Origin: Longimicrobiales bacterium
GTDB taxonomy: Bacteria; Gemmatimonadota; Gemmatimonadetes; Longimicrobiales; RSA9
Direction of reading: 5' to 3'
Assembly (NCBI GenBank): GCA_046483065.1
Contig: JAWODW010000037.1
Location: forward strand, 1,779 to 65,778
DNA length: 64,000 nucleotides
Shown: piece after piece, positions 23,223 through 43,062 of the stretch
Position numbering within the stretch: the stretch's first letter is position 1
Layout: each line of letters opens with the position of its first letter
Position numbers and translations under genes: made by a program
Notes under the pieces: model-generated
What the model was told of the DNA's origin: nothing
Database searches by the model: none
Seen by the model: only the letters and a program-made list of their open reading frames with translations

Positions 23223-24200
23223 ATGAGACCGAACAGCACGCGGCACCGCACCCCTCTGACAGTCGGGCTGGCGGCCCTCATCCTGGCCGTGGCGCCCACT
23301 GGCATCGCGGCACAGGGCAACATCCTCCACCCGCCGGACACCATCGAGAAGCGGCTGGCCCACGACGACTTCGAGATCGTGGACCGCAGGGGCTCCCGGT
23401 TCGATGGCGACCGGACGAACCGGGTGGCCATGTCGTTCGCCGACGGCACCATGATGGTGGCGAAGTGGGCGCTGGCGCCTCAGGGTGGCGAGGCGTACAA
23501 CAACAACCCGCGCTACGAGGTGGCGGCCTACGAGCTCCAGAAGCTCTTCCTGCGGCCCCACGAGTTCGTGGTGCCGCCCACCGTGTTGCGGGCCTTCGAC
23601 CTGGGCTGGTTCCGGAGCCTGGAGCCGGGCGTGCGCCCGACCTTCAATGACACCGAGTCGGTCCTGGTGGTGCTCCAGTACTGGCTCTTCGACATCGCCG
23701 GCGCCGAGTTCTGGGACCGCCGTCGGTTCGCCAGCGACTCCGTCTACGCCCGGCACCTGGCCAACTTCAACATCTTCACGTACCTGGTCCGGCACAACGA
23801 CCAGAACCAGGGAAACTACCTGATCTCCGGGATCGAGACCGACCCGCGGGTCTTCAGCGTGGACAACGGGATCGCGTTCCAGAGCAGCGTGAGCGACCAG
23901 GGCGCGAACTGGCGCCGGCTCCGGGTGGACCGGCTCCCGACCGAGACCATCGACCGGCTGCGGGAGCTGACCGAGGAGGATGTGCGCCGCCGGCTCGAGA
24001 CCGTGGCCCAGTTCCGGATCCAGCCCGATGGCACGCTCACGGCCGAGCCCACCGGCCCCGCCCGCGACCCCGGCCAGGGGATCCGTCGCTCCGACCGCGT
24101 GATCCAGCTCGGCCTGGACCGCCGGGAGATCGACGACGTGTGGCGCCGGATCCAGCGCCTGCTGGCACGCGTCGATGACGGCGACTTCGAGCTCTTCTGA
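23223..24200 (+). CDS. Signal-peptide protein with PI3/PI4-kinase (type II PI4K-like) catalytic motifs, paralogue 1
   Basis: Signal peptide ...LAALILAVAPTGIAAQG. Motifs VAKW (Lys), NNNPRYEVAAYELQKLF...VVPPTV, RHNDQNQGNYLI (catalytic loop-like) and FSVDNGIAF (DxG-like). About 45 percent identity by eye to 37512..38531. Confidence 0.65.
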   Translation: MRPNSTRHRTPLTVGLAALILAVAPTGIAAQGNILHPPDTIEKRLAHDDFEIVDRRGSRFDGDRTNRVAMSFADGTMMVAKWALAPQGGEAYNNNPRYEVAAYELQKLFLRPHEFVVPPTVLRAFDLGWFRSLEPGVRPTFNDTESVLVVLQYWLFDIAGAEFWDRRRFASDSVYARHLANFNIFTYLVRHNDQNQGNYLISGIETDPRVFSVDNGIAFQSSVSDQGANWRRLRVDRLPTETIDRLRELTEEDVRRRLETVAQFRIQPDGTLTAEPTGPARDPGQGIRRSDRVIQLGLDRREIDDVWRRIQRLLARVDDGDFELF

Positions 24201-24203
24201 GCC

Positions 24204-24644
24204 ATGGACGTGATCTTCGCAGTCGTCGCCGACGCAGCCAACGTGAGCCGGGAAGGCAAGCTCAACATCATGGGCATCTTCGACCGGGTCTTCGCCCGGA
24301 AGGTACCCGCCCGGTTCCCGCCGATGCAGCTCGTGATCCGGCTGGAAGCCGACTACGCCGAGCTCGAGACCGAGCACGCCATCCGGGTACAGCTCAGCGA
24401 CCCGGACGACGAGTCCGTCTTCGATATCGACGGCAGCTTCACCCCCCGGGGCGGCCAGCCCGGCCAGAAGGTCCCGGTCAACCACGTCCTCCAGCTCGGG
24501 AACCTGCCGCTCCAGCGTACGGGCACCCACCGGATCCTCATCTGGATCGATGGCGACCTGAAGCGGGAGCTGCCGATCCACGTGGTCCAGGCCCCCGACG
24601 CCCCGCCCCCGGGCGCCGACGGCGGCGATACACTGGTCCACTAG
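24204..24644 (+). CDS. Hypothetical small soluble protein
   Basis: ATG 3 nt after the upstream stop. High GC3. MDVIFAVVADAANVSREGKLNIMGIFDRV N-terminus. No family assigned with confidence. Confidence 0.7.
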   Translation: MDVIFAVVADAANVSREGKLNIMGIFDRVFARKVPARFPPMQLVIRLEADYAELETEHAIRVQLSDPDDESVFDIDGSFTPRGGQPGQKVPVNHVLQLGNLPLQRTGTHRILIWIDGDLKRELPIHVVQAPDAPPPGADGGDTLVH

Positions 24645-24810
24645 CCGGTCCACCGGTCCACTGGACGATCCCCCGGGCACCGGCCGGTCCATGGGGGCAG
24701 CAGCTCTCTCCGTTCGGCAGCGCCGGACCCGCGCCACCGGACGGACGAGTTCTTGCACTTCTCTTCATCGGACCGGCGGAGCGAAACGCTTCCTGAACAA
24801 GGAGTTGGCC

Positions 24811-25179
24811 GTGGTATTCGGTGAGATCATCCTGGCATTCGCGATCGGGCTCCTCCTGGCGCTGATCTTCGCGTACGGCCTCGGACGGACGGGGCCGTGG
24901 GGTGGGTTCGTCTGGTTCTTCCTGGTGGTCTTCCTCACCGCCTGGGCCGTGGGGCTCTGGGTCGAGCCCGTGGGGCCGGCACTCTGGGGCGCTGCATGGG
25001 TGCCGATCCTCTTCGGGGCACTCTTTGTGGCGCTCCTGGTAGCAGCCATACCGCCGAGGCCCGCTCGCCCCGCGGATGTCGCCGAGCCCGATGCGGTCGG
25101 GACCGCCGCCGCCGTGGGACTCTTCTTCTGGCTCCTGGTGGTGATCCTGCTCATCGCCATCATCTTCGCCTACGTCTGA
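24811..25179 (+). CDS. Hypothetical small integral membrane protein (about 4 TM)
   Basis: GTG 24811 lies 6 nt after GGAG. Hydrophobic throughout (VVFGEIILAFAIGLLLALIFAY..., LFFWLLVVILLIAIIFAYV). Followed by a strong hairpin. Confidence 0.6.
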   Translation: MVFGEIILAFAIGLLLALIFAYGLGRTGPWGGFVWFFLVVFLTAWAVGLWVEPVGPALWGAAWVPILFGALFVALLVAAIPPRPARPADVAEPDAVGTAAAVGLFFWLLVVILLIAIIFAYV

Positions 25180-25210
25180 CCCGCATCTGACGGAGGCGGG
25201 CGGAACGAGA

Positions 25211-25246
25211 CGAGCCCCCGGCGGCCGCAAGGCCGCCGGGGGCTCG
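25211..25246. terminator. Strong GC hairpin between convergent genes
   Basis: 16-bp perfect stem CGAGCCCCCGGCGGCC/GGCCGCCGGGGGCTCG with a GCAA tetraloop. No clear U-tract. Confidence 0.6.
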
Positions 25247-25275
25247 TGGTTGGGCGGTCGGCCGCCGCTGTGCGT

Positions 25276-28491
<3,216 letters not shown>

Positions 28492-28595
28492 GGTCACGCG
28501 TCCCTTGTGCGGGGGTCGAAGTCTGCCTATGTGCGGGAAGGGCCGGACGCCCAAAGTGGGAAGGGATCCGGGATGATGCCAGGGGATTGGTGATC

Positions 28596-28621
28596 GGGGT
28601 CGGGGTCGGGGTGGGGTCGGG
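28596..28621 (+). other. Canonical G-quadruplex motif in the BNR/MATE divergent intergenic region
   Basis: GGGGTCGGGGTCGGGGTGGGGTCGGG: four G4 tracts with 1-2-nt loops, followed by further G-runs to 28660. Confidence 0.7.
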
Positions 28622-28718
28622 CCCGGGCTCGGGGGGCGGAGTGGGAAGCGGGATGGGGCGGGGAAAGGCCCCGTCCGGCCTCCCGCCCGGCCACCCCTCC
28701 CGCTACCTTCCCGGCGCC

Positions 28719-30089
28719 ATGAAACCGTTCGCCGCCGCCGTCGCCGCTCTCCCGCCCCGTCGCGAGTTCCGCTCGCTCGTCCGCCTGGCGCTGCCCATCG
28801 TGGCGGTACAGGTGGGGCTGATGTTCATGGGCGTGGTAGACACACTCATGGTGGGCCGGGTCAGCGCCGCAGCGCTGGCGGCGGTGGCCCTCGGCAACCT
28901 GTACTTTTTCTTCATCGCCATCTTCGGGATGGGCGTGCTGTTCGGCCTCGACCCCGTCGTATCTCAGGCGGTGGGCGCCCGGGACGACGCGGCCATCGCC
29001 CGGGCCGTCCAGCGGGGGCTGGTCATGGCCGCCGTGCTGGCCGCCCTCTCCCTCGCGGCGCTGCTGCCGGCCGAGGCGATCTTCACCGTGCTCCGCCAGC
29101 CGCCGGACGTCATCCCCCTGGCCGCTGGCTACGTTCACGCGGCCACCCCGGGGATCGTGGCCTTCCTCGCCTTCATCGTGCTCCGGCAGACGCTCCAGGC
29201 CATGGACCGGGTCCGGCCCATCGTGGTGGCCATCGTGGCGGCGAACCTGGTGAACGTGCTCACGAACTGGCTCCTGGTCTTCGGCCACTGGGGCTTCCCC
29301 GCCCTCGGCCCCATCGGGACGGGGTGGGCCTCGACGTTCAGCCGGTGGACGATGCTCGTCTTCCTCGCGGTGCTCACGCTGCGACGCCTCGGCCCTTACC
29401 TCCGGCCCGCCGGCCGCGTGGTCCTCCAGCTCCGGCCGCTGTGGCGCATGCTCCGCCTCGGCGCGCCCATCGGCGCACAGTTCCAGCTCGAGATGGGCGC
29501 GTTCGCCGTGGTGGCGCTCCTCATGGGCTGGCTCGGCACCGCCCAGATGGCCGGCCACCAGGTGGCCATCAACCTGGCGTCGCTCACGTTCATGGTGCCC
29601 GTGGGCATCGCCCAGGCCGGCGCCATCCGCGTAGGGCAGGCCGTGGGGCGCGACGACCCCGCGGGCGCACGCATCGCTGTGAAGTCGGCCCTCGTGGCCG
29701 GCGCCGGGTTCATGTCCTTCACCGCCGTCGTGTTCCTGGCCTTTCCCGGGTTCCTGACCCACCTCTACACCGAGGAGCCCGAGGTGATGGCCGTGGCCGT
29801 GACGCTCATCCCCATCGCCGGCGTCTTCCAAGTGGCCGACGGGCTCCAGGTGGTCTCGGCCGGCGTGCTCCGCGGTATCGGCGACACCACCGCCCCCTTC
29901 GTGGCCAACCTCCTGGCCTTCTGGATGGTCGGGCTCCCCGTGGGCATCTACCTCGGCTTCCGCACCGCCGCCGGGCCGGTGGGACTCTGGTGGGGGCTCG
30001 TCGCCGGTCTCGGCCTCGTGGCCCTCTTCCTCGTGCTCCGGGTGCGCAATCGGATGCGGAGGACGCTGGCCCGGATCGTCATCGATTAG
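28719..30089 (+). CDS. MATE family efflux transporter
   Basis: Start MKPFAAAVAALPPRREFRSLVRLALPIVAVQVGLMFMGVVDTLMVGRVS. 12 TM helices with internal duplication (second half LRLGAPIGAQFQLEMGAF...). Confidence 0.9.
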   Translation: MKPFAAAVAALPPRREFRSLVRLALPIVAVQVGLMFMGVVDTLMVGRVSAAALAAVALGNLYFFFIAIFGMGVLFGLDPVVSQAVGARDDAAIARAVQRGLVMAAVLAALSLAALLPAEAIFTVLRQPPDVIPLAAGYVHAATPGIVAFLAFIVLRQTLQAMDRVRPIVVAIVAANLVNVLTNWLLVFGHWGFPALGPIGTGWASTFSRWTMLVFLAVLTLRRLGPYLRPAGRVVLQLRPLWRMLRLGAPIGAQFQLEMGAFAVVALLMGWLGTAQMAGHQVAINLASLTFMVPVGIAQAGAIRVGQAVGRDDPAGARIAVKSALVAGAGFMSFTAVVFLAFPGFLTHLYTEEPEVMAVAVTLIPIAGVFQVADGLQVVSAGVLRGIGDTTAPFVANLLAFWMVGLPVGIYLGFRTAAGPVGLWWGLVAGLGLVALFLVLRVRNRMRRTLARIVID

Positions 30090-30091
30090 TA

Positions 30092-30185
30092 GGCGTGGAG
30101 ACGCGGAGGAGCGCGGAGGCGCGGAGGGGGCGTCGCGAGGCGGGGATTCGGGTGGGGATCGAGGGACGCGACGAGGCCGACTTCA
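30092..30185. repeat. Single arm of a CGCGGAG heptad element
   Basis: GGAGACGCGGAGGAGCGCGGAGGCGCGGAGGGGG... starts 3 nt after the MATE stop and ends at the stop of the lipoprotein fragment. Confidence 0.7.
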
Positions 30186-30299
30186 GGGCTCGTAGAGGTC
30201 GAAGGGGGCGACGGTAGTTGTCCAGCCGGACGACGGCGCGTCGCCACCGCACGAGACGGCCGCGAGCACCACGAAGCCGGCGACGAGTCGGTTGGTCAA
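30183..30299 (-). pseudogene. Lipoprotein N-terminal fragment (38 codons: signal peptide + lipobox, then premature stop at the repeat junction)
   Basis: Not in the ORF track (<60 aa). TTG ACC AAC CGA ... gives (M)TNRLVAGFVVLAAVSCGGDAPSSGWTTTVAPFDLYEP*. GC3 is very high. The stop at 30183 directly abuts the CGCGGAG repeat arm 30092..30185. Confidence 0.5.
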
Positions 30300-30315
30300 T
30301 GCAGAAACGTCGACC

Positions 30316-30526
30316 CCCAAGGCGGACCGCCCAAGGCGGACCGGGTTTTACTTACCCGCCCAAGGCGGACCGCCCGCCCAAGGCGGACCGGGTTTTACTA
30401 TTTACCGCCGGGCCCTGCATGGCCTCATTCGCTGCCGATCTGCCCCGAATTCGGGCCGTTGGGATAGCAAATCGGGACATCCAGATAGCTGAAATGGCCA
30501 AATTGTAAAAAGTAAAACCAGGTCCG
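30316..30526. mobile_element. MITE-like element: duplicated left end and inverted right end around an AT-richer core
   Basis: CCCAAGGCGGACCG occurs four times in two ~43-bp tandem units, each ending CGGACCGGGTTTTACT (30336..30351 and 30385..30400). The inverted partner AGTAAAACCAGGTCCG is at 30511..30526. The core has a 12-bp palindrome CCCGAATTCGGG (30444..30455). No transposase is present. Confidence 0.45.
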
Positions 30527-30570
30527 TTAGGAGGCCAAGTTAGACGGCCGGCCTCAAACGGAATCCTTGA

Positions 30571-31140
30571 TCCGACGCCGGCGGCGAAGTGTGGCTGTCG
30601 GCGTTCGGCGGCGGTGAGGCGGAAGCCATGGAGGCGGTGATCGTGACGTCGGGCGGTCGCTACCTGGTGGTGGGCGGTACCGAGGGCGGGGAGGGCGACG
30701 ACGCGTGGGTGGTGGCGGTGGAGCCCGACGGCAGCATCGCCTGGCAGAAGACGTACGGGATCGCCGGCGTGTACGACGAGGCGCTGAGCGTCGGGATGAC
30801 CGACCACGGCGGTGCCCTCATCGGCGGGTCGTACTACGAGGACGGCGACGCGGACTGGAGCTGGACGCTGGCCCGCGTCGGGCCCGACGGCGCGCTGAGC
30901 TGGAACCGGAGCTACGAGCGAAGCTTCGACTGGCCGAACTCCGTGGTCGAGCTGTCCGACGACAGCGCGGGCGCGTCGTGCGCGCCCAGCGCCGACCAGA
31001 CCATCGCGGAGGAAGTCACGACGGTCTCACCGGTGGCCAGCAGCGCCACGGTGACCGACGCGGCCATCACGCCTCAGACCACCAGCGCGTCCGTCACGGA
31101 CACCGGCGAGGGGCACGCGTACGACTGCTCGGACGGTTAG
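30571..31140 (+). pseudogene. 5'-truncated fragment of a beta-propeller-type repeat protein
   Basis: The frame is open from 30571 and the track starts it at GTG 30589. No signal peptide or N-terminus. Repeats DDAWVVAVEPDGSIAWQKTYG / DWSWTLARVGPDGALSWNRSY are typical of secreted repeat proteins. The upstream region is AT-richer repeat DNA. Confidence 0.5.
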
Positions 31141-31187
31141 AAGAGCACTTCCGCGAAGTCGAGGTCCTCATCGCACAGGTCACCGCG

Positions 31188-34361: not shown

Positions 34362-34383
34362 TCCCGTGACGGCGGTCTGACCC

Positions 34384-35142
34384 GTGTTTCCGCTGCGCGA
34401 CGAGAACCCCACGGAGCTGGTCCCCTACATCACGCTGGCGCTCATCGCCATCAACGTGGCGGTGTGGATCATGGTCCAGGGCGCCGGGCTGGACATGCAG
34501 GCGCTCCAGCAGAGCGTGTGCACCTACGGCGCGATCCCGTCGGAGATCACCGGCCAGACCAGCACGCTGCCCCGGGGCTTCCGGGGCCTCCAGTGCCCCA
34601 CCGGCGGGCTCACATGGGGCGCCATCCTCACCAGCATGTTTCTGCACGGCAGCTGGATGCACCTGATCGGGAACGTCTGGTTCCTGTGGATCTTCGGGAA
34701 CAACATCGAGGACAGCCTGGGCCACGGCCGCTTCCTCCTCTTCTACCTTTTGACCGGCGCAGCGGCGGCCGCCGGCCACATCCTGAGCGCGCCCGGTTCC
34801 CCGGTCCCCATGGTTGGCGCGTCGGGCGCCATCAGCGGGATCATGGGCGCGTACCTGCTCCTCTACCCGAGGGTACGGATCCTCACCCTCTTCTTCTTCG
34901 TGATCTTCATCCGGATCATCCCGCTTCCCGCCTGGGTCATGCTCGGCTACTGGTTCCTGATCCAGCTCCTGAGCGGGACGGCCACGGGCGGGGCGTCAGG
35001 CGTGGCGTTCTGGGCCCACGTGGGCGGCTTCGTAGCCGGGCTGGCCCTGGTCAAGCCGTTTGAAAACCGACAGTTGGTGGAGGCGAAGCGGCAGCATGTC
35101 AAGCTCGATAAGCGAGATATCCGCCGAGGGGGGTGGTGGTGA
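34384..35142 (+). CDS. Rhomboid family intramembrane serine protease
   Basis: GTG start. MFLHGSWMHLIGNVWFLWIFG and GASGAISGIMGAY (catalytic Ser) plus a downstream His (AHVGGFVAG). Confidence 0.92.
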   Translation: MFPLRDENPTELVPYITLALIAINVAVWIMVQGAGLDMQALQQSVCTYGAIPSEITGQTSTLPRGFRGLQCPTGGLTWGAILTSMFLHGSWMHLIGNVWFLWIFGNNIEDSLGHGRFLLFYLLTGAAAAAGHILSAPGSPVPMVGASGAISGIMGAYLLLYPRVRILTLFFFVIFIRIIPLPAWVMLGYWFLIQLLSGTATGGASGVAFWAHVGGFVAGLALVKPFENRQLVEAKRQHVKLDKRDIRRGGWW

Positions 35143-35272
35143 TTGCCGCCGCATCTGCGCGCGCGGCGGCGACTGGGGGATGAACGGTCGCGGCAGGCCG
35201 GGTTCACGGGGTCTGCTTGACTCGCGGCTCTTTTCATTACCGGCGGCTGATGGGGAAACTGGGGGTCCGATG

Positions 35273-35570
35273 TTCGCGGCGGGGCTGCGTTCGCGGTGAC
35301 TCCGGGCTGGCTTGCCGGTGGAATCTGAGCACCGGGGTTTGAACCGCTTCCGGTCTTCCATGCGGCGCGGTTCGAACCGGCTCGATCGGGTTGACGTGGA
35401 CCGACGCGGGCGGTTCAAAGGCGGCGGCGAGCCGGCCGGCAGACCACCCCACGCCCGAACCAACCCCGATCTCAGTCGAGCACCCACCCCCACTCCCCCC
35501 ATCGTACCGCGAACCCAACCAGGCCCCGAACGCTCAATCCAACCCCGCGAACCCCGACTCCACCGCGAAC
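35273..35570. repeat. Long palindromic intergenic element with GTTCGCGG / CCGCGAAC arms
   Basis: GTTCGCGG at 35273 and 35290. CCGCGAAC at 35507, 35545 and 35563. The left arm GCGTTCGCGGTGA also occurs at 5497..5509. Confidence 0.7.
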
Positions 35571-35638
35571 CCTGCTCCCCCCCTCGCGGCCCGAAAGCAG
35601 AAGCGTCAGCCCCGAGATCGCGCCCGACAGGGCCGCCC

Positions 35639-37453
35639 TCAGTGCCCGACTGCCGCCGCGTCCGCATCGCGGGGGTCCGGCGCGCCGGCGATCCGGCCAT
35701 CGGGCCGCACACGAATCGAATGGGCGTGCCCCTGGGCGCCGCGGATGTCGATGGAGTGGCCGCGATCCCGGAGCCCCAGCAGGACGGCCTCGGGCCAGTC
35801 GGCGTCCTCCATCCGCAGCCGGTCCGGGAGCCACTGGTGGTGGACCCGGGGCGCCTGGACGGCTGCGAGGATCCCCATGTCGAACTCCATCAGGTTGAGG
35901 CTCACCTGGAGCACGGTGTTGATGATGGTCCGCCCGCCGGGGCTGCCCACCACGGCGAAGAGGCCGCCGTCGGGGTCCTCGAGGATGGTGGGTGACATGC
36001 TTGAGAGCATCCGCTTCCCGGGCTCGGCCAGGTTCGGCTCGGTCCCGATGAGCCCACCCTCGGTGGTGAGGCCCGGCGCGGGGTTGAAGTCGCCCATCTC
36101 GTTGTTCAGGAGGAACCCGGCGCCGGGGACGGTGATCCGGGAGCCGTAGCTGTATTCCAGCGTGTACGTGGTGGAAACGGCCATGCCGTCGGGGTCCACC
36201 ACGGAGAAGTGGGTGGTCTGCGCGCTCTCGTGGACCATGGCCACGTCGTCCACCGACGACGGCGTCACGGTGTCGGACTCGATCCCGGCCCGGAGCTCGG
36301 CCGCGTACGCCTTGCTCGTGAGCCGGTCCAGCGGGACGTCCACGAAGTCGGTGTCGGCCAGGTGGCGCGCGCGGTCGCGGTACGCCCGGCGCATGGCCTC
36401 GGCCAGGTGGTGGACGTACGGCGCGGTGTTGTGGCCCATGGCCGCCAGGTCGTACCCCTCGAGGATGTTGAGCATCTCCACGAGGGCGGTCCCGCCGCTG
36501 GACGGCGGCGGCATCCCGATGACGCCGTAGCCCCGGTACGTGCCCCGGACGGGCGCCCGCTCGGCGGGCTCGTAGCGGGCCAGGTCCTCGAGGGTGATGA
36601 GCCCGTCGCCGCGCTCCATTTCGGCGACGAGGAGCCGGGCCGTCTCACCGGCGTAGAACCCGTCGCGGCCCTCGTCCCGGATCCGCTCCAGCGTCCGTGC
36701 CAGATCGGGCTGCCGGAAGATCTCGCCCACCTCGTACGGCTCGCCGTCCTTCGAGAACGCGGCCACGCTGGCGGGGTAGCGCTCGAACGCGTCGAGCACC
36801 GACGCCAGCGACCGGGCGGCGCCGGGCGTCATCTCCCAGCCGTCGGCGGCGAGCCGGACGGCGGGCTCCACCAGCTCCCGCCACGGCAGGCTGCCGTACT
36901 GGTCGTGGACGTACGCCAGGCCGGCCACCGTGCCGGGCACACCCACCGCCCGATGGCTCAGGTGGTGACGCTGCCGGTCGTACTCGCCGTCCTCGTCGAG
37001 CCACATCTCCGGGTGCGCGGCCAGCGGCGCCTTCTCCCGGAAGTCGATGGTCGTAGCCTCGGCGTCGGGCAACCGGACCACCATGAACCCGCCGCCGCCG
37101 ATGTTGCCGGCCCGGGGGTAGACCACCGCCAGTGCGAAGCCGGTGGCCACAGCGGCGTCCACGGCGTTGCCGCCGGCCTGGAGCACCTCATCGCCCACGT
37201 GGCTGGCCAGCGCGTGGGCGGAGACCACCATCCCGTGCTCGGCCACAGCGGCACGGTCGGCGGGCACGGCAGCGACGCCGGGCTCATCGCCCACGGCCGC
37301 CGGGACGGGGTCGGTCCGTTGCACCGGTGTCTCGGCGGGTGCGCCGGCACACGCCGGGAGGGCCACGAGCCCGAACGCCAGGAACAGGGTGGCCAGCCCA
37401 CGCACGGCGGGCCGGGAGAAGTCGGGAACGATAGCGTTGAGCGTCATAGTCAC
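35639..37453 (-). CDS. ggt: Gamma-glutamyltransferase
   Basis: Lipoprotein-like signal (LVALPACAG). GGNAVDAAVA, PPSSGG, autoprocessing/catalytic TTHFSVVD, NNEMGDF. Confidence 0.93.
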   Translation of the reverse strand: MTMTLNAIVPDFSRPAVRGLATLFLAFGLVALPACAGAPAETPVQRTDPVPAAVGDEPGVAAVPADRAAVAEHGMVVSAHALASHVGDEVLQAGGNAVDAAVATGFALAVVYPRAGNIGGGGFMVVRLPDAEATTIDFREKAPLAAHPEMWLDEDGEYDRQRHHLSHRAVGVPGTVAGLAYVHDQYGSLPWRELVEPAVRLAADGWEMTPGAARSLASVLDAFERYPASVAAFSKDGEPYEVGEIFRQPDLARTLERIRDEGRDGFYAGETARLLVAEMERGDGLITLEDLARYEPAERAPVRGTYRGYGVIGMPPPSSGGTALVEMLNILEGYDLAAMGHNTAPYVHHLAEAMRRAYRDRARHLADTDFVDVPLDRLTSKAYAAELRAGIESDTVTPSSVDDVAMVHESAQTTHFSVVDPDGMAVSTTYTLEYSYGSRITVPGAGFLLNNEMGDFNPAPGLTTEGGLIGTEPNLAEPGKRMLSSMSPTILEDPDGGLFAVVGSPGGRTIINTVLQVSLNLMEFDMGILAAVQAPRVHHQWLPDRLRMEDADWPEAVLLGLRDRGHSIDIRGAQGHAHSIRVRPDGRIAGAPDPRDADAAAVGH

Positions 37454-37511
37454 AGAGTGTGCATCGGTCGAAGGTGGTCGAGCGCCGCGTGCAATCGCAG
37501 CCCGTCGCGGT

Positions 37512-38531
37512 CTAGAACGTCTCCAGCTCGCCGGCGTCTACACGGTCCAGCACGGTGCGGATCCGGGCCCACAGCTCATCCAGCTCCAGGTTCGTGAGCC
37601 CGAACTGGATCATGCCTTCCTCCCGGGGCACGCCCCGGTTCTCGTCGATCTTGGCCGTGGGCGGGACCCGTTCCAGGCGGCCATCCTCGCGCACCCGGAA
37701 CTGGGCCACCACGTAGAGCGCGTCGTCCAGCTCGCCCCGGGTCAGCCGCCGCAGCCGCTCGACGGCCTCGCCGGGGACGCGGTCCACATGCAGGTCCCGC
37801 CACACCGTACCCCGCGGACTCGCCGGACTGCGGAACGCCACCCCGTTGTCGACGGCATAGAGCCTGGGCGGTCCCCGGGTGGAGACCAGCACGTTGCCCG
37901 GGTTGGAGTCCACGTGCCGGATCAGGTGCGTGAAGAGGTTCAGGTAGCCGAGGCGCCGGGCGTACGCCGGGTCCCCACCGAGGCGTGCGGTGTCCGGCGC
38001 CTCGGCGGCGTCCACGTTCTGGAGCCAGTACTGCACGGCCACCAGCACCGAGCCCGTTCCCTCGAACGTGGGCTCCGCCTCCGGGTCGAGTTGACGGTAC
38101 GCGGTTAGTGGTAGCTCCCGGATCACGGTGGGCGGGACCACCCAGTCGGCCTCGTCGAAGAAGAGCTTCTGGAAGGCGTACGCCGCCGCCTCGTAGCGGG
38201 GCTGGTTGTTGATGGCGAACCCGCCCGGCGGCGCCTTGGCCCACTTCACCCGGATGCGCCGCCCATCGCTGAACTGGATGTCCGTCTGCTGGGTCCGATC
38301 GCCCTGCCACCGGTTGTCGCGGATCCCGACGATCTGGAACGGGTCGCCGGCCAGGCGGGCCTCGACGGCCGTGGGGGAGAAGACGTAGTTGGGGCCGTAC
38401 GTGGACGCCTGCGGATCGCTCGTCGGGAGAGCGCTGTCCGGGCGGCTCCCGCCCTGGGCCACAGCGGGAGCCGCCACAACGGCGGCCGCCACCGCCAGGA
38501 CCGAGAGGCGTGTTCGGGAGAATGTTCGCAT
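37512..38531 (-). CDS. Signal-peptide protein with PI3/PI4-kinase (type II PI4K-like) motifs, paralogue 2
   Basis: Signal peptide MRTFSRTRLSVLAVAAAVVAAPAVAQG. Motifs VKWAKAP, NNQPRYEAAAYAFQKLF...VVPPTV, RHVDSNPGNVLV, YAVDNGVAF. C-terminal FGLTNLELDELWARIRTVLDRVDAGELETF matches paralogue 1. Confidence 0.65.
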   Translation of the reverse strand: MRTFSRTRLSVLAVAAAVVAAPAVAQGGSRPDSALPTSDPQASTYGPNYVFSPTAVEARLAGDPFQIVGIRDNRWQGDRTQQTDIQFSDGRRIRVKWAKAPPGGFAINNQPRYEAAAYAFQKLFFDEADWVVPPTVIRELPLTAYRQLDPEAEPTFEGTGSVLVAVQYWLQNVDAAEAPDTARLGGDPAYARRLGYLNLFTHLIRHVDSNPGNVLVSTRGPPRLYAVDNGVAFRSPASPRGTVWRDLHVDRVPGEAVERLRRLTRGELDDALYVVAQFRVREDGRLERVPPTAKIDENRGVPREEGMIQFGLTNLELDELWARIRTVLDRVDAGELETF

Positions 38532-38649
38532 GGGGGCAACATACCGGCGGCCCGGGGGCCGCGGCCAGTATCTTGCCCCGGGCCGCCGTCACAGGCCAGA
38601 TTATGGACACTTCCCTCGCAACACGTCACTCATCAGGCAGACCGTCGCC

Positions 38650-40449
38650 ATGACCGCCCCTAATGTGGACCCGCGTTCCATGGAGGTCGAGGGCCTGGCG
38701 CTCGATCCCGGCGAGCAGAGAGCGGTCCGGGCCCGGCAGCTGCGCACGCTGAACACCCGCACGGTCCCCCTCCTGCGGCTCCTGGGCGCCAACTTCCTGG
38801 TGTTCGGCGCCGTGGTGCACAACAGCCTCATCCTGGGCCGGATCGACTGGACGGCGATCCTCGTCTACACCGCCTTCGTCGAGCTCTACTGTCTGGCCAG
38901 CTGGTGGGCCCTCGACCGATGGTACGACCCCGATGCGTCGCCGGACCTGGCACTCCTCTTCCTGGTGGCGGACCTCGTCCCCATGGCCATGGCCGTCTAC
39001 CTCACCGGCGCCGACGCCAGCTGGATCTTCTGGGTCTTCCTCGTCCGGGTGGTGGACCAGACCCACACGTACTTCATGCGGGCGTTCATGTTCACCTGGC
39101 TCGCCACGCTGGCCTATGCATCGGTGATCGGGTGGGCGGTGGTGGTGGACGGGGCCACGGTCAACCTCCCCGGCGAGATCGCCAAGCTCATGTTCCTGGT
39201 CCTGGCGGGGTCGTACATCTCGTTCACCGCCCGCACATCCGAGCGGGTCCGATCGCGCCTGGCCGACGCCATCCGCACGGCTCGACAGTCGGTGACCGAG
39301 CTGCGGGTGAAGTCGCGACAGCTGGAGCAGGCCCGGGAGGCCGCCGAGGCCGGGAGCCAGGCAAAGAGCCAGTTCCTGTCCCGGGTCAGCCATGAGCTGA
39401 GGACCCCGATGAACGCCATCCTCGGCTTCGCCCAGCTCCTCCAGTTGGACGAGATGACCGAGGAGCAGCAGGCCCACGTCGACGAGATCCTGACGGGCGG
39501 CCGCCACCTGCTCGACATCATCAACGAGGTCATGGACATCGCCCGGGTCGAAACAGGGTCCCTGGCCAAGGAGGTGGAGCCGATCCGGCTGGGGCCCGTG
39601 CTCCGGGAGGGGCTGGAGCGGGCGCAGCCCACCGCCGAGCGCCGGAACGTGACGCTCCCGGAGCGGCCGCCGCCGGGCTCGGACGCCTGGGTCATGGGCA
39701 GCCGGCGGAAGGTGCGGCAGGTCTTCGCCAACCTCCTCGACAACGCCATCAAGTACAACAGCTCGCCGGGCACCGTGTCGCTGGCCTGCGGGCACCGGGA
39801 CGGGACCCTACGGGTGAGCGTGACCGACACGGGCCCGGGGCTCCCAGCCGGCCGGATCGAAGCGGCGTTCACCCCCTTCGAGCGCCTCGGCGCGGAGAAG
39901 ACCGACCCCGACGGCACGGGGCTCGGCCTCCCGGTGGCACGATCCCTGGTGGAAGCCATGAACGGACGGATCGGCGTGGACTCGGAGCCGGGCTCCGGGA
40001 GCACCTTCTGGTTCGAGCTCCTGGAGGCCGAGCCCCCATTGCAGGAGGAGGCCAGAGTGGTGGACGCGGAGACCACCGGACCCCTGGTGCTCTACGTAGA
40101 CGACAAACCGGAAAACGTCGTGCTCGTCCGCCGGATCCTGGCCCGGCGCCCCACGGTCCGCCTGATCTCGTCACCGCTGGGGCTGAAAGGGCTGGAAACG
40201 GCACGGCAGCGCCGACCCGACCTGATCCTCCTCGACCTGGAACTCCCCGACATCGCCGGGCGAGAGGTGCTGACCCGGCTGCAGGACGACGTCGCCACCC
40301 GCGAGATCCCCGTGGTGGTGGTGAGCGCCGAGGCGGAACCGAGCAAGGTGGAGCGGCTCCTGGCCGAGGGCGCACGGGCCTACTTCGTCATGCCCTACGA
40401 CGTGGCGAAGTTCCTCGACGTGGTCGACGACCTGCTCGACCTGCGGTAG
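38650..40449 (+). CDS. Hybrid sensor histidine kinase (polytopic membrane sensor + HisKA/HATPase + C-terminal receiver)
   Basis: Start MTAPNVDPRS at ATG 38650. About 6 TM helices. H-box FLSRVSHELRTPMNAI, DTGPGL, GLGLPVA. Receiver VLYVDDKPENV...LILLDLELPDIAG. Confidence 0.88.
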   Translation: MTAPNVDPRSMEVEGLALDPGEQRAVRARQLRTLNTRTVPLLRLLGANFLVFGAVVHNSLILGRIDWTAILVYTAFVELYCLASWWALDRWYDPDASPDLALLFLVADLVPMAMAVYLTGADASWIFWVFLVRVVDQTHTYFMRAFMFTWLATLAYASVIGWAVVVDGATVNLPGEIAKLMFLVLAGSYISFTARTSERVRSRLADAIRTARQSVTELRVKSRQLEQAREAAEAGSQAKSQFLSRVSHELRTPMNAILGFAQLLQLDEMTEEQQAHVDEILTGGRHLLDIINEVMDIARVETGSLAKEVEPIRLGPVLREGLERAQPTAERRNVTLPERPPPGSDAWVMGSRRKVRQVFANLLDNAIKYNSSPGTVSLACGHRDGTLRVSVTDTGPGLPAGRIEAAFTPFERLGAEKTDPDGTGLGLPVARSLVEAMNGRIGVDSEPGSGSTFWFELLEAEPPLQEEARVVDAETTGPLVLYVDDKPENVVLVRRILARRPTVRLISSPLGLKGLETARQRRPDLILLDLELPDIAGREVLTRLQDDVATREIPVVVVSAEAEPSKVERLLAEGARAYFVMPYDVAKFLDVVDDLLDLR

Positions 40450-40504
40450 CGAGCCACCCCGGCCCCGACAGGCGACCCGCGGCTACGCACCGCGGGGCCG
40501 ACGA

Positions 40505-41278
40505 CTACGCGTCCCGGTCCAGGACGTACACGTTCCGCTGCGCCGACGGTAGCAGCACCATCCGCAGGATGTTGACATGGGCCGGCAGGTTCGCCACGTA
40601 CGCCACGGCGTCGGCCACATCGTCGCCGGTGAGCGGCTGGAACCCGTCGTAGACGCTCTCCGCCCGCTCCTCATCACCGTGGAACCGCACCACGCTGAAC
40701 TCCGTCTCCACGAACCCCGGGTCCACGCTCGAGACCCGGAGCCCCGTCCCCGTGACGTCCAGGTTGATGGCCTCCGTCAGCGCCGTTACCGCGAACTTGC
40801 TGGCGTTGTAGACGTTGCCCTTCGGATAGACCTGGTGGCCGGCCGTGCTGCCGATGTTGATGATATGGCCCCGGTCCGCCTCGATCATCGACGGGAGCAG
40901 GAGCCGCGTCACGTTCAGCAACCCCTTCACGTTCGTGTCGATCATCCGGTCCCAGTCGTCGAAGCTGCCCTCCTGGACCGTGTCGAACCCGGCGGCCAGC
41001 CCGGCATTGTTGACCAGGATGTGGGGCGGCCCCGCCTCGTCCAGGAGCCGGTCCACCGCCGCCCGCACGGCGTCCCGGTCCCGTACATCGACGCTCGCCA
41101 CGTGGACGGCCACGCCGTGCTCCCGGGCCAGCTCGTCCGCCAGCCGCTTCAGCCGCTCTTCCCGACGGGCCCAGAGCGCCACGTCGGCGCCCTCGGCCGC
41201 GAGCCTGCGCGCGCAGGCCTCTCCGATCCCCGAGCTCGCACCCGTCACCAGGGCGAGCTTGCCTTCGATTCTGTTCAT
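40505..41278 (-). CDS. SDR family NAD(P)-dependent oxidoreductase
   Basis: Start MNRIEGKLALVTGASSGIGEA (TGxxxGxG). NNAG. Catalytic Y..NASK (YNASKFA). Confidence 0.9.
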   Translation of the reverse strand: MNRIEGKLALVTGASSGIGEACARRLAAEGADVALWARREERLKRLADELAREHGVAVHVASVDVRDRDAVRAAVDRLLDEAGPPHILVNNAGLAAGFDTVQEGSFDDWDRMIDTNVKGLLNVTRLLLPSMIEADRGHIINIGSTAGHQVYPKGNVYNASKFAVTALTEAINLDVTGTGLRVSSVDPGFVETEFSVVRFHGDEERAESVYDGFQPLTGDDVADAVAYVANLPAHVNILRMVLLPSAQRNVYVLDRDA

Positions 41279-41293
41279 ACCGTCAAGCTTTCG

Positions 41294-41582
41294 ACGCGAA
41301 GACACGAAGTCAAATGCGCGAAGGCGCGGAGAACGGCAGCAGGGCACGCGAAGGCGCGGAGATCGCGAAGGGGTGCGTCGTGGGCCGAAACCTGTTCTCA
41401 GATCCCGACGACCGGTTCCGGGTGGAGACGGTGGGCTCGACGTTCGCTGCGAAGCCCGACCCGCCCGGACAACCCCATGTCACGAAGTCTGCTCCGCCCG
41501 GATGGTCCGACCCCACCGGCGAGCCCGCCCTTCGCGATCTTCGCGTCTTCGCGTGGGATGCAGTGCTTCGCGTCTTCGCGCG
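41294..41582. repeat. Palindromic CGCGAAG/CGCGGAG heptad element
   Basis: The left arm CGCGAAGGCGCGGAGATCGCGAAGG is the reverse complement (21/25) of the right arm CCTTCGCGATCTTCGCGTCTTCGCG. The right arm nearly duplicates 5641..5670. Confidence 0.85.
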
Positions 41583-41594
41583 AACCCGAGGGTG

Positions 41595-41636
41595 GGACCC
41601 ACCGCGTCGCCCGGACCCACCGCGTCGCCCGGACCC
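41595..41636. repeat. 18-bp tandem duplication (GGACCCACCGCGTCGCCC x2.3) abutting the DinB stop codon
   Basis: Copies at 41595..41612 and 41613..41630, with a partial third at 41631..41636. Confidence 0.9.
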
Positions 41637-42163
41637 TACCGATACCGCTCGTCGAGGATCGCCCGGTGGTGGATCTCGTGGCCGGCGATGACCCAGGCGA
41701 TGCCCCGGGGCGTGAACGTCACGCCGCTGGCGGTGCCCGTCCGGAGCAGTGCTGCATCGGTGAGGCCGCGGAAGAGAGCCGCGGTGGATGCCCGGACCGC
41801 CGCGAGCTCGGCCTTCACGCCGTCGAGGGTGCGGGGCGCCAGGTCATCGGGAACCACGTAGTCGTCCTGCGCGAAGCCCGGCAGCGGCGTGGCATCGCCC
41901 CGGGCGATCCGGAGCGCACGATAGCCGAACACCCGCTCGGTATCGGCCAAATGGACCAGGACCTCCTTCAGACTCCATTTCCCGGCGGCGTACCGGTAGT
42001 CGGGGTCCACGCCGAGAGCGTCGACCACGCGGAAGGTCTCCTCCAGCTGTCCGGCCAACGCCGAGAGCAGGCTCCCCGCCGGTCGGTGCTCCAGGTAGCC
42101 GCGGTAGTACTCGGCTACCTCGTCCGGGCCGGGACGGCCGTCCAGCACGCCGATGCCGCTCAC
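41636..42163 (-). CDS. DinB-family (DinB_2-like) four-helix-bundle metalloprotein
   Basis: GTG 42163 forms a GTGA overlap with the upstream stop. EVLVHLADTERVFGYR and IAGHEIHHRAIL His motifs. Confidence 0.75.
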   Translation of the reverse strand: MSGIGVLDGRPGPDEVAEYYRGYLEHRPAGSLLSALAGQLEETFRVVDALGVDPDYRYAAGKWSLKEVLVHLADTERVFGYRALRIARGDATPLPGFAQDDYVVPDDLAPRTLDGVKAELAAVRASTAALFRGLTDAALLRTGTASGVTFTPRGIAWVIAGHEIHHRAILDERYR

Positions 42164-43062
42164 TCGGGGACCCCGCAGTCGCTCCGGGGCAGCGCTCGGC
42201 CGGGTGCCTCGATCCGGGCTTCCACCCGGGCCACCACCGCCGGACGCATGTCCAGGAACCGATGGACCAGGACCGTGTCGATCCCGGCAAGCACCGCCTC
42301 GAAGGAGTCGGCCGGGAGGCTGCGGTACCGCCGCCACGGCCGCCCCAGATCGCCGGGCTCGGCGATGGAGTCGATCTCCGCCTCCCAGCACGTGGTCGGC
42401 CGCGTGGTGGGCTGATACTCGAAGGCCCGGTTGTGGTCGATGGCTACCACCCGGTCACCCACAAGCAGCCAGTTGTTCGGGTGCCGGTCGCTGTTCCCGA
42501 TGATCGCGTCGAACAGACGCAGCGCGTCAGGCTTGCCGGCACCCTCGTCCGGCGGCGAGCGGGCGTCGGCCACGAAGTACATGGTCGAACCCGACAGGGT
42601 GTCCCCCTGCTGGTTCCTGATCCGGGTCCTGATGGTCATGGGCGTGAGATCCATGGCCAGGACCCGGTCGATCCGGTAGGTGGCCACTTCCCGGTCGGCG
42701 CCGCACTCGGGGCAGAAGATGTCGGAACCGTCCACCTTGAAGATGGACCGCACACCCGCCCCGTGATCGAGACGCCAGGTGTACGAGACGCCCTGGCTGT
42801 CCATGGCCAGCGGCGTGGCGGCCTCGGGCCACCCCCGGAGCCGTCCCTCGAGCCGGACCAGGACCTCCTCCGCACCCGCCGTGTCCCCGGCCGCCCGGAG
42901 CGTCCACGCGGCCTCCTGCAGACGCCCGCGCTCCAGCAGACTGTCCACCACGGCCTCGGCCCCGGCACCCTGAGCCGCCGCCGGCAGAGGCGCCCACGCC
43001 CCCGCCACCCACGCGGCCAGCCCCAGGACGATCACCCGCATTCCTCGCCTCGTTCCCTTCAT
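42160..43062 (-). CDS. Signal-peptide protein with PI3/PI4-kinase-like catalytic motifs, paralogue 3 (divergent)
   Basis: Start MKGTRRGMRVIVLGLAAWVAGAWA... Motifs FKVDG (Lys), REVATYRIDRVLAMDLTPMT, IIGNSDRHPNNWLL (DRHxxN), VAIDHNRAF. Confidence 0.65.
   Translation of the reverse strand: MKGTRRGMRVIVLGLAAWVAGAWAPLPAAAQGAGAEAVVDSLLERGRLQEAAWTLRAAGDTAGAEEVLVRLEGRLRGWPEAATPLAMDSQGVSYTWRLDHGAGVRSIFKVDGSDIFCPECGADREVATYRIDRVLAMDLTPMTIRTRIRNQQGDTLSGSTMYFVADARSPPDEGAGKPDALRLFDAIIGNSDRHPNNWLLVGDRVVAIDHNRAFEYQPTTRPTTCWEAEIDSIAEPGDLGRPWRRYRSLPADSFEAVLAGIDTVLVHRFLDMRPAVVARVEARIEAPGRALPRSDCGVPE

Follow-up and report, generated by a model that had tools for sequence, protein, structure and literature searches.

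The window, a 64-kb stretch of DNA from a soil/sediment bacterium (Longimicrobiales, Gemmatimonadota), contains three kinase-like open reading frames: kinase A (23223..24200, + strand, 325 aa), kinase B (37512..38531, - strand, 339 aa) and kinase C (42160..43062, - strand, 300 aa, or 293 aa from the NCBI-annotated start seven codons downstream). A preliminary description had given these frames without strand, and the ORFs and their translations confirmed all three. Their GC3 values of 0.88-0.91, in DNA of 70% GC, indicate that they are true coding frames. Kinase A is 100% identical to R6U63_05240 (P0001 in our set), which is annotated as a "hypothetical protein" in a Longimicrobiales MAG. Every motif previously listed was found in the translations, namely VAK81WA, NNNPRYE99VAAY, VVPPT, HND193QNQGN198YL and VD214NGIAF in A; RVK96WA, NNQPRYE114AAAY, VVPPT, HVD208SNPGN213VL and VD228NGVAF in B; and IFK109VD, ADRE125VATYRID, LTPMT, SD192RHPNN197WL and ID209HNRAF in C. 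The key residues are thus K81, E99, D193, N198 and D214 in A; K96, E114, D208, N213 and D228 in B; and K109, E125, D192, N197 and D209 in C.

The three proteins had been proposed to be paralogs. This holds for A and B, which share 47% identity over 293 aa (E 8e-90) and whose homologs stand in tandem in three related loci (L010, L030 and L031), but not for C. In BLASTP the match between C and A was confined to the catalytic loop region (E 0.026), and hhalign aligned them with the motifs in register (E 9e-4, probability 23%, 159 columns). As the likeness is limited to the catalytic loop and to the profile level, C forms a family of its own within the superfamily that it shares with A and B. There are therefore two bacterial families, A/B and C, and both are unnamed in curated Pfam or NCBIfam models.

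Kinase A is the last gene of an operon that starts with a transporter of 1058 aa (18031..21207, + strand) matching Pfam TLC (32.9 bits, cut-off 21), HEAT_2 (61.5 bits) and cNMP_binding (48.1 bits). A TM scan and the Pfam matches place about 12 transmembrane segments first, HEAT repeats next and a cyclic-nucleotide-binding domain at the C-terminus. Major et al. 2017 (PMC5381601) described this NTT-HEAT-cNMP-binding architecture; according to that paper, all characterized NTTs are importers or uptake exchangers. The NTT domain in the window is divergent (TIGR00769, 23.9 bits vs a cut-off of 387). We know of no NTT-HEAT protein with a known substrate or transport direction. The receiver ATG follows after 5 bp; this single-domain response-regulator receiver (21213..21692, + strand, 159 aa; Response_reg, 89.3 bits) is 90% identical to its counterpart in L002 (3947-4435) and overlaps by 4 bp (GTGA) a sensor histidine kinase of 500 aa read from GTG 21689 (21689..23191, + strand; HATPase_c 98 bits, HisKA 24 bits), which also falls into NCBIfam histidine-kinase families and has 4-5 transmembrane segments and no large periplasmic domain. 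Kinase A begins 31 bp further on, and 3 bp after its stop lies a gene for a DUF6941 protein (24204..24644, + strand, 146 aa; 103.6 bits). The DUF6941 gene is kept only in close relatives (L001, L002, L007 and L009) and occupies the position that an exported PPP-family phosphatase gene holds in most other lineages; no gene for such a phosphatase was found in the 64-kb window. The preliminary account of the locus had overlooked this informative context, from the NTT transporter and two-component genes to the phosphatase.

Kinase B lies 58 bp upstream of a gene for a gamma-glutamyltranspeptidase (35639..37453, - strand, 604 aa; G_glu_transpept 558.7 bits, TIGR00066 553 bits) that has a hydrophobic segment at its N-terminus. 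The two genes are probably co-transcribed, and the same order recurs in L008, L056 and L067. Divergent from kinase B is a hybrid histidine kinase/receiver whose sensor part has several TM segments (38647..40449, + strand; HisKA, HATPase_c and Response_reg); its start is uncertain, the mechanical ORF running from 38389 and overlapping B, and a comparable divergent gene is present in L067.

Export, which had been claimed from the N-termini, is very likely for all three proteins, presumably by the Sec route. Each begins with a positive n-region and a hydrophobic core followed by IAA|QG (A), AVA|QG (B) or AAA|QG (C), and predicted signal peptides span residues 1-30 of A and 1-25 of B. By the heuristic sequence rules used for these calls, the n-region, core and AxA|Q site are present in 112 of 119 A-family and 76 of 90 C-family proteins. 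The cysteine pattern agrees, as it fits an oxidizing compartment: A and B have no cysteine, C has Cys117, Cys120, Cys225 and Cys296, and the mature part holds exactly four in 88/91 C-family and none in 107/120 A-family members.

The fold was assessed from AF2 models of A (pLDDT 85, pTM 0.83) and C (pLDDT 86.9, pTM 0.84). For both, the best Foldseek matches were human PI4KII alpha (4hnd/4hne; E 2e-8 for A and 3e-7 for C) and PI4KII beta, followed by Fam20C, Fam20B and Fam20A (E 1e-6 to 1e-5, TMq 0.5-0.55; Fam20C at 3e-6 for A, Fam20C/A at about 5e-6 and TMq 0.52-0.55 for C). The models predict that the motif residues are placed as in a kinase fold, with the Lys in beta3, alphaC contributing the Glu, Asp-x4-Asn following alphaE and the last Asp past the next beta-hairpin. 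All of these residues are invariant in 40 A-family and 34 C-family sequences of 36-70% identity to the query. The A model shows an extra C-terminal subdomain in the A/B kinases, and C carries a three-helix domain at its N-terminus. PF00454, the sole recurrent Pfam relation of both families, was matched (E<=0.1) by all 34 C-family members and by 30 of 40 in the A family; in the window, A (20.0 bits) and C (22.9 bits) stayed below the cut-off of 27.1 and the search with B gave no match, so the window proteins do not formally belong to PF00454. The likeness to PI4KII is beyond chance, given the family-wide PF00454 matches and the Foldseek E values, and the PI4KII-like motif order read from the sequence is borne out. 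The C-family profile also matched Fam20B (5xom, E 0.002) and PI4KIIbeta (0.016), and aligned with Fam20B, Fam20 and Fam20A at the alphaC motif (REVAAYRvDRLLG vs EIAAFHLDRLLGF) and the catalytic loop (GNSDRH vs GNADRH/GNMDRH). Its alignment with PI4KIIbeta likewise covers these two motifs. What had been offered as an analogy to Fam20 thus appears, from these alignments, to be distant homology. We place both families, with near certainty, in the protein-kinase-like branch that holds the eukaryotic type II PI4-kinases and the Fam20 secretory kinases.

Across 80 related loci, NTT genes were present in 41-42, receivers in 35, PPP phosphatases in 40 and histidine kinases in 31-33, the latter directly 5' of the kinase; NTT or PPP was found in 58 loci and both in 23. 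At least six gene orders retain the linkage (L018/L064, L011, L015, L040, which is labelled Bacteroidota, L052 and L074). The PPP proteins are Shelph-type homologs of the Shewanella cold-active protein-tyrosine phosphatase (1v73, 2z72, 2zbm; E about 1e-47) that keep the catalytic motifs GDxHG (35/40), GDxxDRG (39/40) and GNHE (38/40), and 34 of 35 have a hydrophobic N-terminal segment. Two fusion proteins (P0212 and P0216) read signal peptide-kinase-PPP with one signal peptide each, and a third (P0235) has an NTT, one additional hydrophobic segment and then the kinase; each is a singleton, P0235 coming from a single 8.9-kb Logan contig. In the C family, C-like, A-like and PPP genes form a tight operon in L082/L083, and a C-like gene precedes PPP in L087. 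Among the A-family loci whose flanks are long enough, about 40% have no NTT/HK genes, and the NTT-HEAT family is spread much more broadly than the kinases (PMC5381601), so the partnership is not obligatory. The linked loci belong mostly to one phylum, and part of the linkage may therefore be inherited synteny.

The reading we favor, with a probability of roughly 0.6, is an exported kinase/phosphatase module that works outside the cytoplasm and is possibly fed with ATP by the NTT transporter. A, B and C would be the writer in the periplasm or cell envelope, and the exported PPP phosphatase, adjoining or fused to the kinase in relatives, would be the eraser. An inner-membrane NTT exchanging ATP (out) for ADP (in) would supply exported kinase A, under the control of cytoplasmic cNMP and of the receiver/histidine-kinase pair. 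Functional coupling of the kinases to PPP and NTT is likely, and genomic context suggests that A, B and C, atypical kinases with a complete set of catalytic residues, are probably active phosphotransferases. ATP export by the NTT is a more tentative proposal, at somewhat less than even odds, and porins could let ATP escape from the periplasm of a diderm. A protein substrate is favored because the closest solved relative of PPP is a protein-tyrosine phosphatase; we put it forward as a possibility slightly short of an even chance. Metallophosphoesterases also cleave non-protein phosphoesters. Phosphatidylinositol as a substrate is unsupported; the conserved partner is a homolog of PPP-type phosphoprotein phosphatases. 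Against the module count the TM-scores to known kinases, only 0.4-0.55, and the lack of PPP in the window, with DUF6941 in its place among the closest relatives. A full-text literature search found no paper describing such a bacterial periplasmic kinase family, in line with the earlier statement that no periplasmic PI4K-like family had been characterized, and the gene linkage and fusions with exported kinases point to a phosphorylation system so far unrecognized.

Other readings were weighed against this module. The exported proteins might phosphorylate an envelope lipid or a sugar of lipopolysaccharide, peptidoglycan or exopolysaccharide rather than protein, as PI4KII does with a lipid head group and Fam20B and POMK with a glycan sugar. 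The top structural match is indeed a lipid kinase and the top C-family profile match a xylose kinase, PMT-like glycosyltransferase genes lie 5' of kinase-PPP pairs in L063, L069, L070, L077 and L080, and the extra C-terminal subdomain of A/B would also suit this reading. We consider it rather unlikely: the proteins have no CCPCC palmitoylation or membrane-insertion element (A and B contain no cysteine at all), the conserved and at times fused PPP partner is related to a protein-tyrosine phosphatase, and phosphatidylinositol is, to our knowledge, not known among Gemmatimonadota lipids. A role as exported pseudokinases, or as accessory proteins whose kinase fold binds a nucleotide or metabolite and which modulate the adjoining membrane histidine kinases with neither phosphotransfer nor a need for periplasmic ATP, is improbable. 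A and B both adjoin multi-TM-sensor histidine kinases that have no periplasmic domain of their own, the periplasm is conventionally taken as ATP-free, and Fam20A is a pseudokinase precedent in the same branch; yet pseudokinases do not usually keep the Lys, Glu, Asp-x4-Asn and Asp residues invariant, the linkage and fusion of the kinases to a phosphatase with intact catalytic motifs speak for a genuine phosphoester product, and a histidine kinase is missing from the neighborhood of many kinase loci.

A role in nucleotide scavenging or sensing, in which the NTT imports and the exported kinase-fold and PPP proteins interconvert or hydrolyze nucleotides or dinucleoside polyphosphates outside the cell ahead of their uptake, would accord with the uptake direction of characterized NTTs, with the linkage of the three genes and with the ApaH-type dinucleoside-polyphosphate hydrolases of the PPP family. 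We regard it as very improbable, because the fold resembles that of kinases acting on proteins, lipids and glycans and not that of nucleotide kinases, PPP matches the Shewanella phosphatase, ATP import is of little use to a free-living heterotroph and many kinase-PPP pairs have no NTT. Least credible, with only a slight chance, is that the hydrophobic segment is an uncleaved anchor or an artifact and that the kinase domain lies on the cytoplasmic membrane face, as PI4KII acts at the cytosolic face. The conserved AxA|Q site and the four near-invariant cysteines of the C family speak against this, as do the hydrophobic N-terminal segment of the partner PPP and the fusions, in which the phosphatase has no hydrophobic segment of its own and shares one with the kinase domain. 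By the positive-inside rule, moreover, the positive n-region before the hydrophobic core would leave the C-terminal domain outside, cleaved or not.

The three open reading frames that the preliminary description had singled out as signal-peptide proteins with motifs of type II phosphatidylinositol 4-kinases (PI4KII) are real genes. In a window of ~70% GC whose genes were called with a GC3-based script, A (23223..24200, + strand), B (37512..38531, - strand) and C (42160..43062, - strand) have a GC3 of 0.88-0.91, the codon-position pattern of true genes. All of the motifs originally listed were found in the three proteins, with key residues K81, E99, D193, N198 and D214 in A; K96, E114, D208, N213 and D228 in B; and K109, E125, D192, N197 and D209 in C. 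With 47% identity over 293 residues (E 8e-90), A and B are clearly paralogous. C had been described as a third paralog; its BLASTP likeness to A is confined to the catalytic loop (E 0.026), and a profile-level comparison (hhalign) put every motif of the two in register across 159 columns, at E 9e-4 and a probability of 23%. We therefore regard A and B as a paralogous pair within one family, the A family, and C as belonging to a sister family, the C family. A is 100% identical to the retrieved homolog P0001 (R6U63_05240) and C to P0121 (R6U63_05315), and the existing annotation of these matches, where named, is "hypothetical protein".

The expected ATP-/metal-binding and catalytic residues are invariant in alignments of 40 A/B-type (A1) and 34 C-type (A2) sequences, namely K81, D193, N198 and D214 in the A family and K109, D192, N197 and D209 in the C family. 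AlphaFold2 models of A (pLDDT 85.0, pTM 0.83) and C (pLDDT 86.9, pTM 0.84) have the secondary-structure order of a protein-kinase-like fold: an N-lobe of three strands, the third bearing the lysine, then a glutamate-bearing helix and two strands, followed by a helix, the Asp-x4-Asn loop, and a beta-hairpin leading to an aspartate. The catalytic Lys, Asp and Asn and the metal Asp thus lie on the expected elements. When the models were compared with the PDB using Foldseek, human PI4KIIalpha took first place for both (E 2e-8 for A, 3e-7 for C), with its structures 4hnd and 4hne at ranks 1-3 and TMq values to PI4KII of 0.40-0.51. PI4KIIbeta was found at E about 5e-6 and Fam20C, Fam20B and Fam20A at E 1e-6 to 1e-5, the Fam20 structures giving the highest TM-scores among the matches (0.50-0.55); ordinary protein kinases and class III PI3K lay behind, at E 1e-4 or weaker.

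PF00454 was the sole Pfam family matched consistently: at E<=0.1, it was hit by all 34 of the C-type sequences (best E 3e-9) and by 30 of the 40 A-type ones (best E 1.4e-7). The match to this family expected of the window proteins was obtained among their relatives but not at full strength in the window, where A (20.0 bits) and C (22.9 bits) score below the PF00454 gathering threshold of 27.1 bits and B gave no match. This shows a superfamily-level relationship of A, B and C to PF00454, not formal membership. In the C-family profile, the REVAAYRvDRLLG helix and the GNSDRH loop align with the motifs of Fam20B, nematode Fam20, Fam20A and PI4KIIbeta; matches of this profile to PDB chains were marginal (5xom, E 0.002; 4kqa, E 0.011; Fam20A, E 0.05), and the A-family profile returned only noise from PDB sequences (434 repressor, E 0.6). 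Because the invariant residues, the models, the Foldseek ranking and the PF00454 and profile matches agree, we consider the assignment to a PI4KII-like fold to be right. A further weak match of the C-family profile (positions 179-212, E 0.11), to 9pdz_A, a 299-residue "Periplasmic binding protein-like II superfamily protein", falls in the catalytic-loop region.

We applied a signal-peptide heuristic (positive n-region, hydrophobic core of at least 10 residues, small-x-small site) to all retrieved homologs. It was passed by 112/119 A-family and 76/90 C-family proteins, the failures being mostly truncated or mis-started sequences. The cleavage region shows the conserved pattern (P)AxA↓Q(D/G), after which A-family proteins continue with a mature N-terminus xNIL. 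Beyond residue 35, approximately the mature part, 107/120 A-family proteins contain no Cys and 88/91 C-family proteins contain exactly four, at near-invariant positions (117, 120, 225 and 296 in C), which fits two disulfides in an oxidising compartment. By the positive-inside rule, the kinase domain would lie outside even with an uncleaved peptide. The pass rates and the Cys pattern bear out, at the level of prediction, the export proposed earlier, and both families are predicted to be exported. Tat export was considered for C, which carries TRRGMRV, and rejected, as the twin Arg is not conserved in the C family; the lipoprotein reading of the window proteins was rejected because they have no lipobox Cys.

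The best structural match, PI4KII (PI4KIIalpha/beta and plant PI4Kgamma, PF00454; 4hnd, 4hne and 4wtv, E 2e-8 to 1e-5), has the same order of motifs: the beta3 Lys, an E-x-A-A-Y alphaC helix, a DR(H/G)xxNW-type catalytic loop, which in the C-family profile aligns with that of PI4KIIbeta, and the IDxG metal-binding Asp. The TM-scores are just 0.4-0.5. PI4KII enzymes are anchored on the cytosolic face of membranes by a Cys-rich CCPCC palmitoylation insert. Unlike them, A, B and C are bacterial, predicted to be exported and devoid of the CCPCC insert; A and B have zero Cys, and those of C are dispersed (117, 120, 225 and 296). The partner genes of the A family, encoding an exported Shelph-type PPP phosphatase (PPP) and an NTT transporter, have no counterpart in PI4KII biology. 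This context of a PPP partner and predicted export does not suggest phosphorylation of phosphatidylinositol at the 4-position, and the phosphoinositide substrate that a PI4-kinase label would carry found no support. With Fam20 (the protein kinase Fam20C, the xylose kinase Fam20B and the pseudokinase Fam20A), the bacterial proteins share a predicted signal sequence and predicted action outside the cytosol, and the C family can be aligned with Fam20B, Fam20 and Fam20A through its alphaC motif and GNxDRH loop. Fam20 kinases also depend on ATP transport into a non-cytosolic compartment, as the system proposed below would. They differ from the bacterial proteins, which are much smaller and have a different N-terminal region; the Pfam Fam20C domain was matched neither by the window proteins (E<=1) nor by their relatives (E<=0.1), the sequence E-values to Fam20 are marginal (0.002-0.06), and no match of the Cys pattern to the Fam20 disulfides emerged. 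The comparison with Fam20 had been offered as an analogy; the word seems too weak, since the resemblance appears to be one of distant homology.

CotH (spore coat) is another bacterial atypical kinase acting on extracytoplasmic structures; the SCO1664, HipA-like and CotH families are cytoplasmic or mother-cell-made and have no Sec signal peptides. No CotH match was obtained. TIGR03843 (SCO1664 family) was weakly matched by all three (14.9-24.7 bits, cut-off 172) and HipA_2 by C (14.1 bits, cut-off 27) and 24/34 of its relatives; like the weak matches to ABC1, these cover the catalytic loop only and are far below threshold. C does not qualify as a HipA-like toxin kinase, given the sub-threshold score and neighbours that are DinB-like and AstE/AspA-like, with no HTH/HipB-type antitoxin among them. 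A role in anti-phage defence was rejected, PADLOC having given just matches of catalytic-loop length (15-22 bits) to PDC-M66A and PDC-M03A. No curated Pfam or NCBIfam model names either family, the only matches that reach or approach significance being to the generic PF00454 and, far under its cut-off, to TIGR03843. The earlier statement that no bacterial periplasmic family of this kind has been characterised stood up in full-text literature searches, which turned up no account of exported bacterial PI4KII/Fam20-like kinases, although such an absence is not proof. We place the kinases in the PI4KII/Fam20 branch as new bacterial families with predicted export.

Kinase A (23223..24200, +) comes fourth in a compact run of genes on one strand. 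The gene for an NTT(TLC)-HEAT-cNMP-binding (cNBD) protein (18031..21207, +) is followed after 5 bp by that of a single-domain receiver (21213..21692, +), which overlaps through GTGA the gene of a multi-TM histidine kinase (21689..23191, +). A 31-bp gap with an AAGGGA ribosome-binding site precedes kinase A, and 3 bp past its stop begins the last gene, encoding a DUF6941 protein (24204..24644, +) of 146 aa without signal peptide or TM segment. The kinase A-DUF6941 arrangement is repeated in four loci of other genomes or metagenomes (L001, L002, L007 and L009), and in the closest relatives DUF6941 fills the slot that the PPP phosphatase holds in most other lineages. No PPP phosphatase was found in the 64-kb window by tblastn with 40 queries (E<=0.01).

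The protein encoded by 18031..21207 exceeds the Pfam cut-offs for TLC (32.9, cut-off 21), HEAT_2 (61.5, cut-off 27.7) and cNMP_binding (48.1, cut-off 27.5). It scores 23.9 bits against the NCBIfam AAA superfamily model, with a cut-off of 387, and is thus divergent from characterised ATP/ADP translocases. Its architecture is exactly the NTT-HEAT-cNBD described in the NTT-HEAT passages of Major, Embley and Williams (2017, PMC5381601). Those passages place two Gemmatimonadetes sequences in the NTT set, describe NTT-HEAT and NTT-HEAT-cNBD fusions as predominantly bacterial, and discuss ATP uptake or exchange; they leave NTT-HEAT function unknown, with no NTT-HEAT protein characterised, and connect these transporters with neither an exported kinase nor an exported phosphatase. 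Residues 930-1054 of the window protein, its cNMP-binding domain, gave weak PADLOC matches (~32 bits) to Pycsar-type effector models, which are most likely due to the cyclic-nucleotide-binding domain common to both rather than to a role in defence. Just downstream of the operon lies a 162-aa ORF (24691..25179, +) with ~5 hydrophobic segments and no Pfam/NCBIfam match. Convergent with the operon is the gene of a 1092-aa Sortilin/Vps10-BNR repeat protein (25276..28554, -), whose position is kept in the six closest loci (L001, L002, L003, L006, L007 and L009) and which has more distant homologs in L015 and L052.

A scan of 185,579 species-representative genomes yielded 278 stretches encoding A-family relatives, of which the best 80 loci were analysed by clustering all neighbours. 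Most of these 80 are labelled Gemmatimonadota; scattered MAGs bear the labels Calditrichia, KSB1/Deferribacteres, Neomarinimicrobiota and Bacteroidota/Cytophagia, and single loci those of Deltaproteobacteria, Actinomycetota and Thaumarchaeota. The NTT-HEAT-cNBD gene is a partner in 41/80 loci, a receiver in 35/80, a histidine kinase in 31/80 and a metallophosphoesterase (PPP), the gene absent from the window, in 40/80. NTT or phosphatase is present in 58/80 loci, and both together in 23/80; ~40% of the A-family loci with sufficient flanking DNA are without NTT and histidine-kinase genes. The linkage between kinase and partners survives rearrangement, six gene orders having been seen: NTT-receiver-histidine kinase-kinase-PPP (L018 and L064), kinase-PPP-NTT-receiver-histidine kinase (L011), NTT-kinase-PPP (L015), kinase-NTT-PPP (L040, labelled Bacteroidota), NTT-histidine kinase-x-PPP-kinase (L052) and NTT-kinase (L074, Gemmatimonas). 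The literature searched contained no report of a kinase-NTT-PPP (Shelph) linkage, an absence that is not proof.

Other genes recur beside the A family. Genes for membrane-anchored Hanks-type Ser/Thr kinases (Pkinase, 144 bits) flank it in L013, L016, L021, L034, L039 and L079, at times on both sides, and PPP is near in some of these loci. In the NTT-less Gemmatimonadota loci L063, L069, L070, L077 and L080, a PMT-like (dolichyl-phosphate-mannose-type) glycosyltransferase gene precedes the kinase-PPP pair; genes for a methyl-accepting-protein-like product and a periplasmic binding protein are also upstream in L063, L069, L070 and L077, and downstream of the pair, L069, L070, L077 and L080 have HlyD-like and ABC ATPase genes.

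The PPP gene directly adjoins the kinase gene and is usually translationally coupled to it. Its product has a match at E about 1e-47 in the cold-active protein-tyrosine phosphatase of Shewanella, the enzyme that founded the Shelph group (1v73, 2z72 and 2zbm), and keeps the catalytic motifs GDxHG (35/40), GDxxDRG (39/40) and GNHE (38/40). A hydrophobic leader of its own is present in 34/35 PPP proteins. Unlike the Shelph structures, the kinase-linked PPP has an extra ~100-aa N-terminal domain and a predicted signal peptide, and in some proteins it forms one chain with the kinase. When 1.84 billion representative proteins were searched exhaustively with a profile, 667 A-family clusters (50% identity clusters, E<=1e-3) were obtained. 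P0212 and P0216 are signal peptide-kinase-phosphatase fusions in which the phosphatase leader is lost. In P0235, an NTT domain is followed by a single additional hydrophobic segment, the counterpart of the kinase signal peptide, and then by the kinase, which this topology would again place outside. All of these fusions are singletons, and P0235 is a continuous ORF on one 8.9-kb contig. The 425-aa gene adjoining the NTT-kinase fusion (L165) was considered as the phosphatase and rejected, as it is not a PPP.

We propose, with a probability of roughly 0.3, that some diderms possess a dedicated, ATP-fuelled, reversible phosphorylation outside the cytoplasm, in which the NTT would export ATP, the kinases would write and the PPP would erase. 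These diderms would, just as tentatively, be mainly Gemmatimonadota among the loci examined, with scattered MAGs of Bacteroidota, Calditrichia, KSB1 and Neomarinimicrobiota. Kinases of the PI4KII/Fam20 lineage, exported by Sec, would phosphorylate a periplasmic or envelope substrate (proteins or glycans), and the exported Shelph-type phosphatase would take the phosphate off their products. The NTT-HEAT-cNBD protein would act as an antiporter swapping cytoplasmic ATP for periplasmic ADP, thereby fuelling the kinase; with 12 TM segments ahead of them, the HEAT and cNMP-binding domains at its C-terminus would face the cytoplasm, and the receiver/histidine-kinase pair together with a cyclic nucleotide would set the activity of the NTT or of the system. 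The proposal is weakest on what the NTT transports and in which direction, and on what the kinase phosphorylates. As the kinase substrate we favour a protein, for the single reason that the phosphatase has its closest solved relative in a protein-tyrosine phosphatase; a lipid or a glycan is a serious rival.

The eukaryotic secretory pathway, with its luminal kinase, ATP/ADP exchanger and luminal phosphatase, parallels this proposed logic. The periplasm is usually regarded as being without ATP and ATP-dependent signalling, an assumption that a gene set of kinase, phosphatase homolog and ATP/ADP-transporter homolog makes directly testable. If true, the proposed phosphorylation system would be a bacterial counterpart, and possibly an evolutionary source, of the eukaryotic secretory-pathway kinase system and would give a first function to the widespread NTT-HEAT transporters; if confirmed, it would be categorically new as a system. 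With it comes a concrete hypothesis on what the NTT-HEAT(-cNBD) transporters do in free-living bacteria, and the exported PI4KII/Fam20 relatives bear on the origin of eukaryotic secretory kinases and type II PI4-kinases. Two protein families now annotated "hypothetical protein" become defined, A/B comprising ~670 clusters at 50% identity, and relatives in culturable Gemmatimonas make genetics feasible.

In the 80 genome loci, no C-family gene lies beside an A-family gene; the linkage was found only in L082/L083 (unclassified bacterium), where a C-like gene, an A-like gene (48% identity to A, E 4e-104) and the PPP gene form a tight operon. In L087, the PPP gene directly follows the C-like gene, so that the C family, too, is tied to this gene set. 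A metagenome scan with the C-family alignment returned mostly unrelated proteins sharing just a GNSDRHxxNW-like loop, the clear C-family loci being L085-L088. In Gemmatimonadota, C lies within a conserved C-(DinB)-SDR-...-GGT-rhomboid stretch, GGT being gamma-glutamyltranspeptidase. B is immediately upstream of the GGT gene in the window (35639..37453, -), L008, L056 and L067, and divergent from a hybrid histidine kinase in the window and L067. Tandem pairs of A-family kinase genes occur in L010, L030 and L031, and B appears to be derived from a tandem duplicate of A. Elsewhere in the window, 45073..46146 (-) encodes a 357-aa protein with DEAD-box helicase domain 1 and a C-terminal cold-shock domain, in which a second helicase domain was not detected; a Gemmatimonadales relative (L081, 3854-4924) shares this architecture. 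Finally, 53010..53453 (-), inside the gene 51801..53462, encodes a second receiver-like stretch that is 33% identical to the receiver of the kinase A operon.
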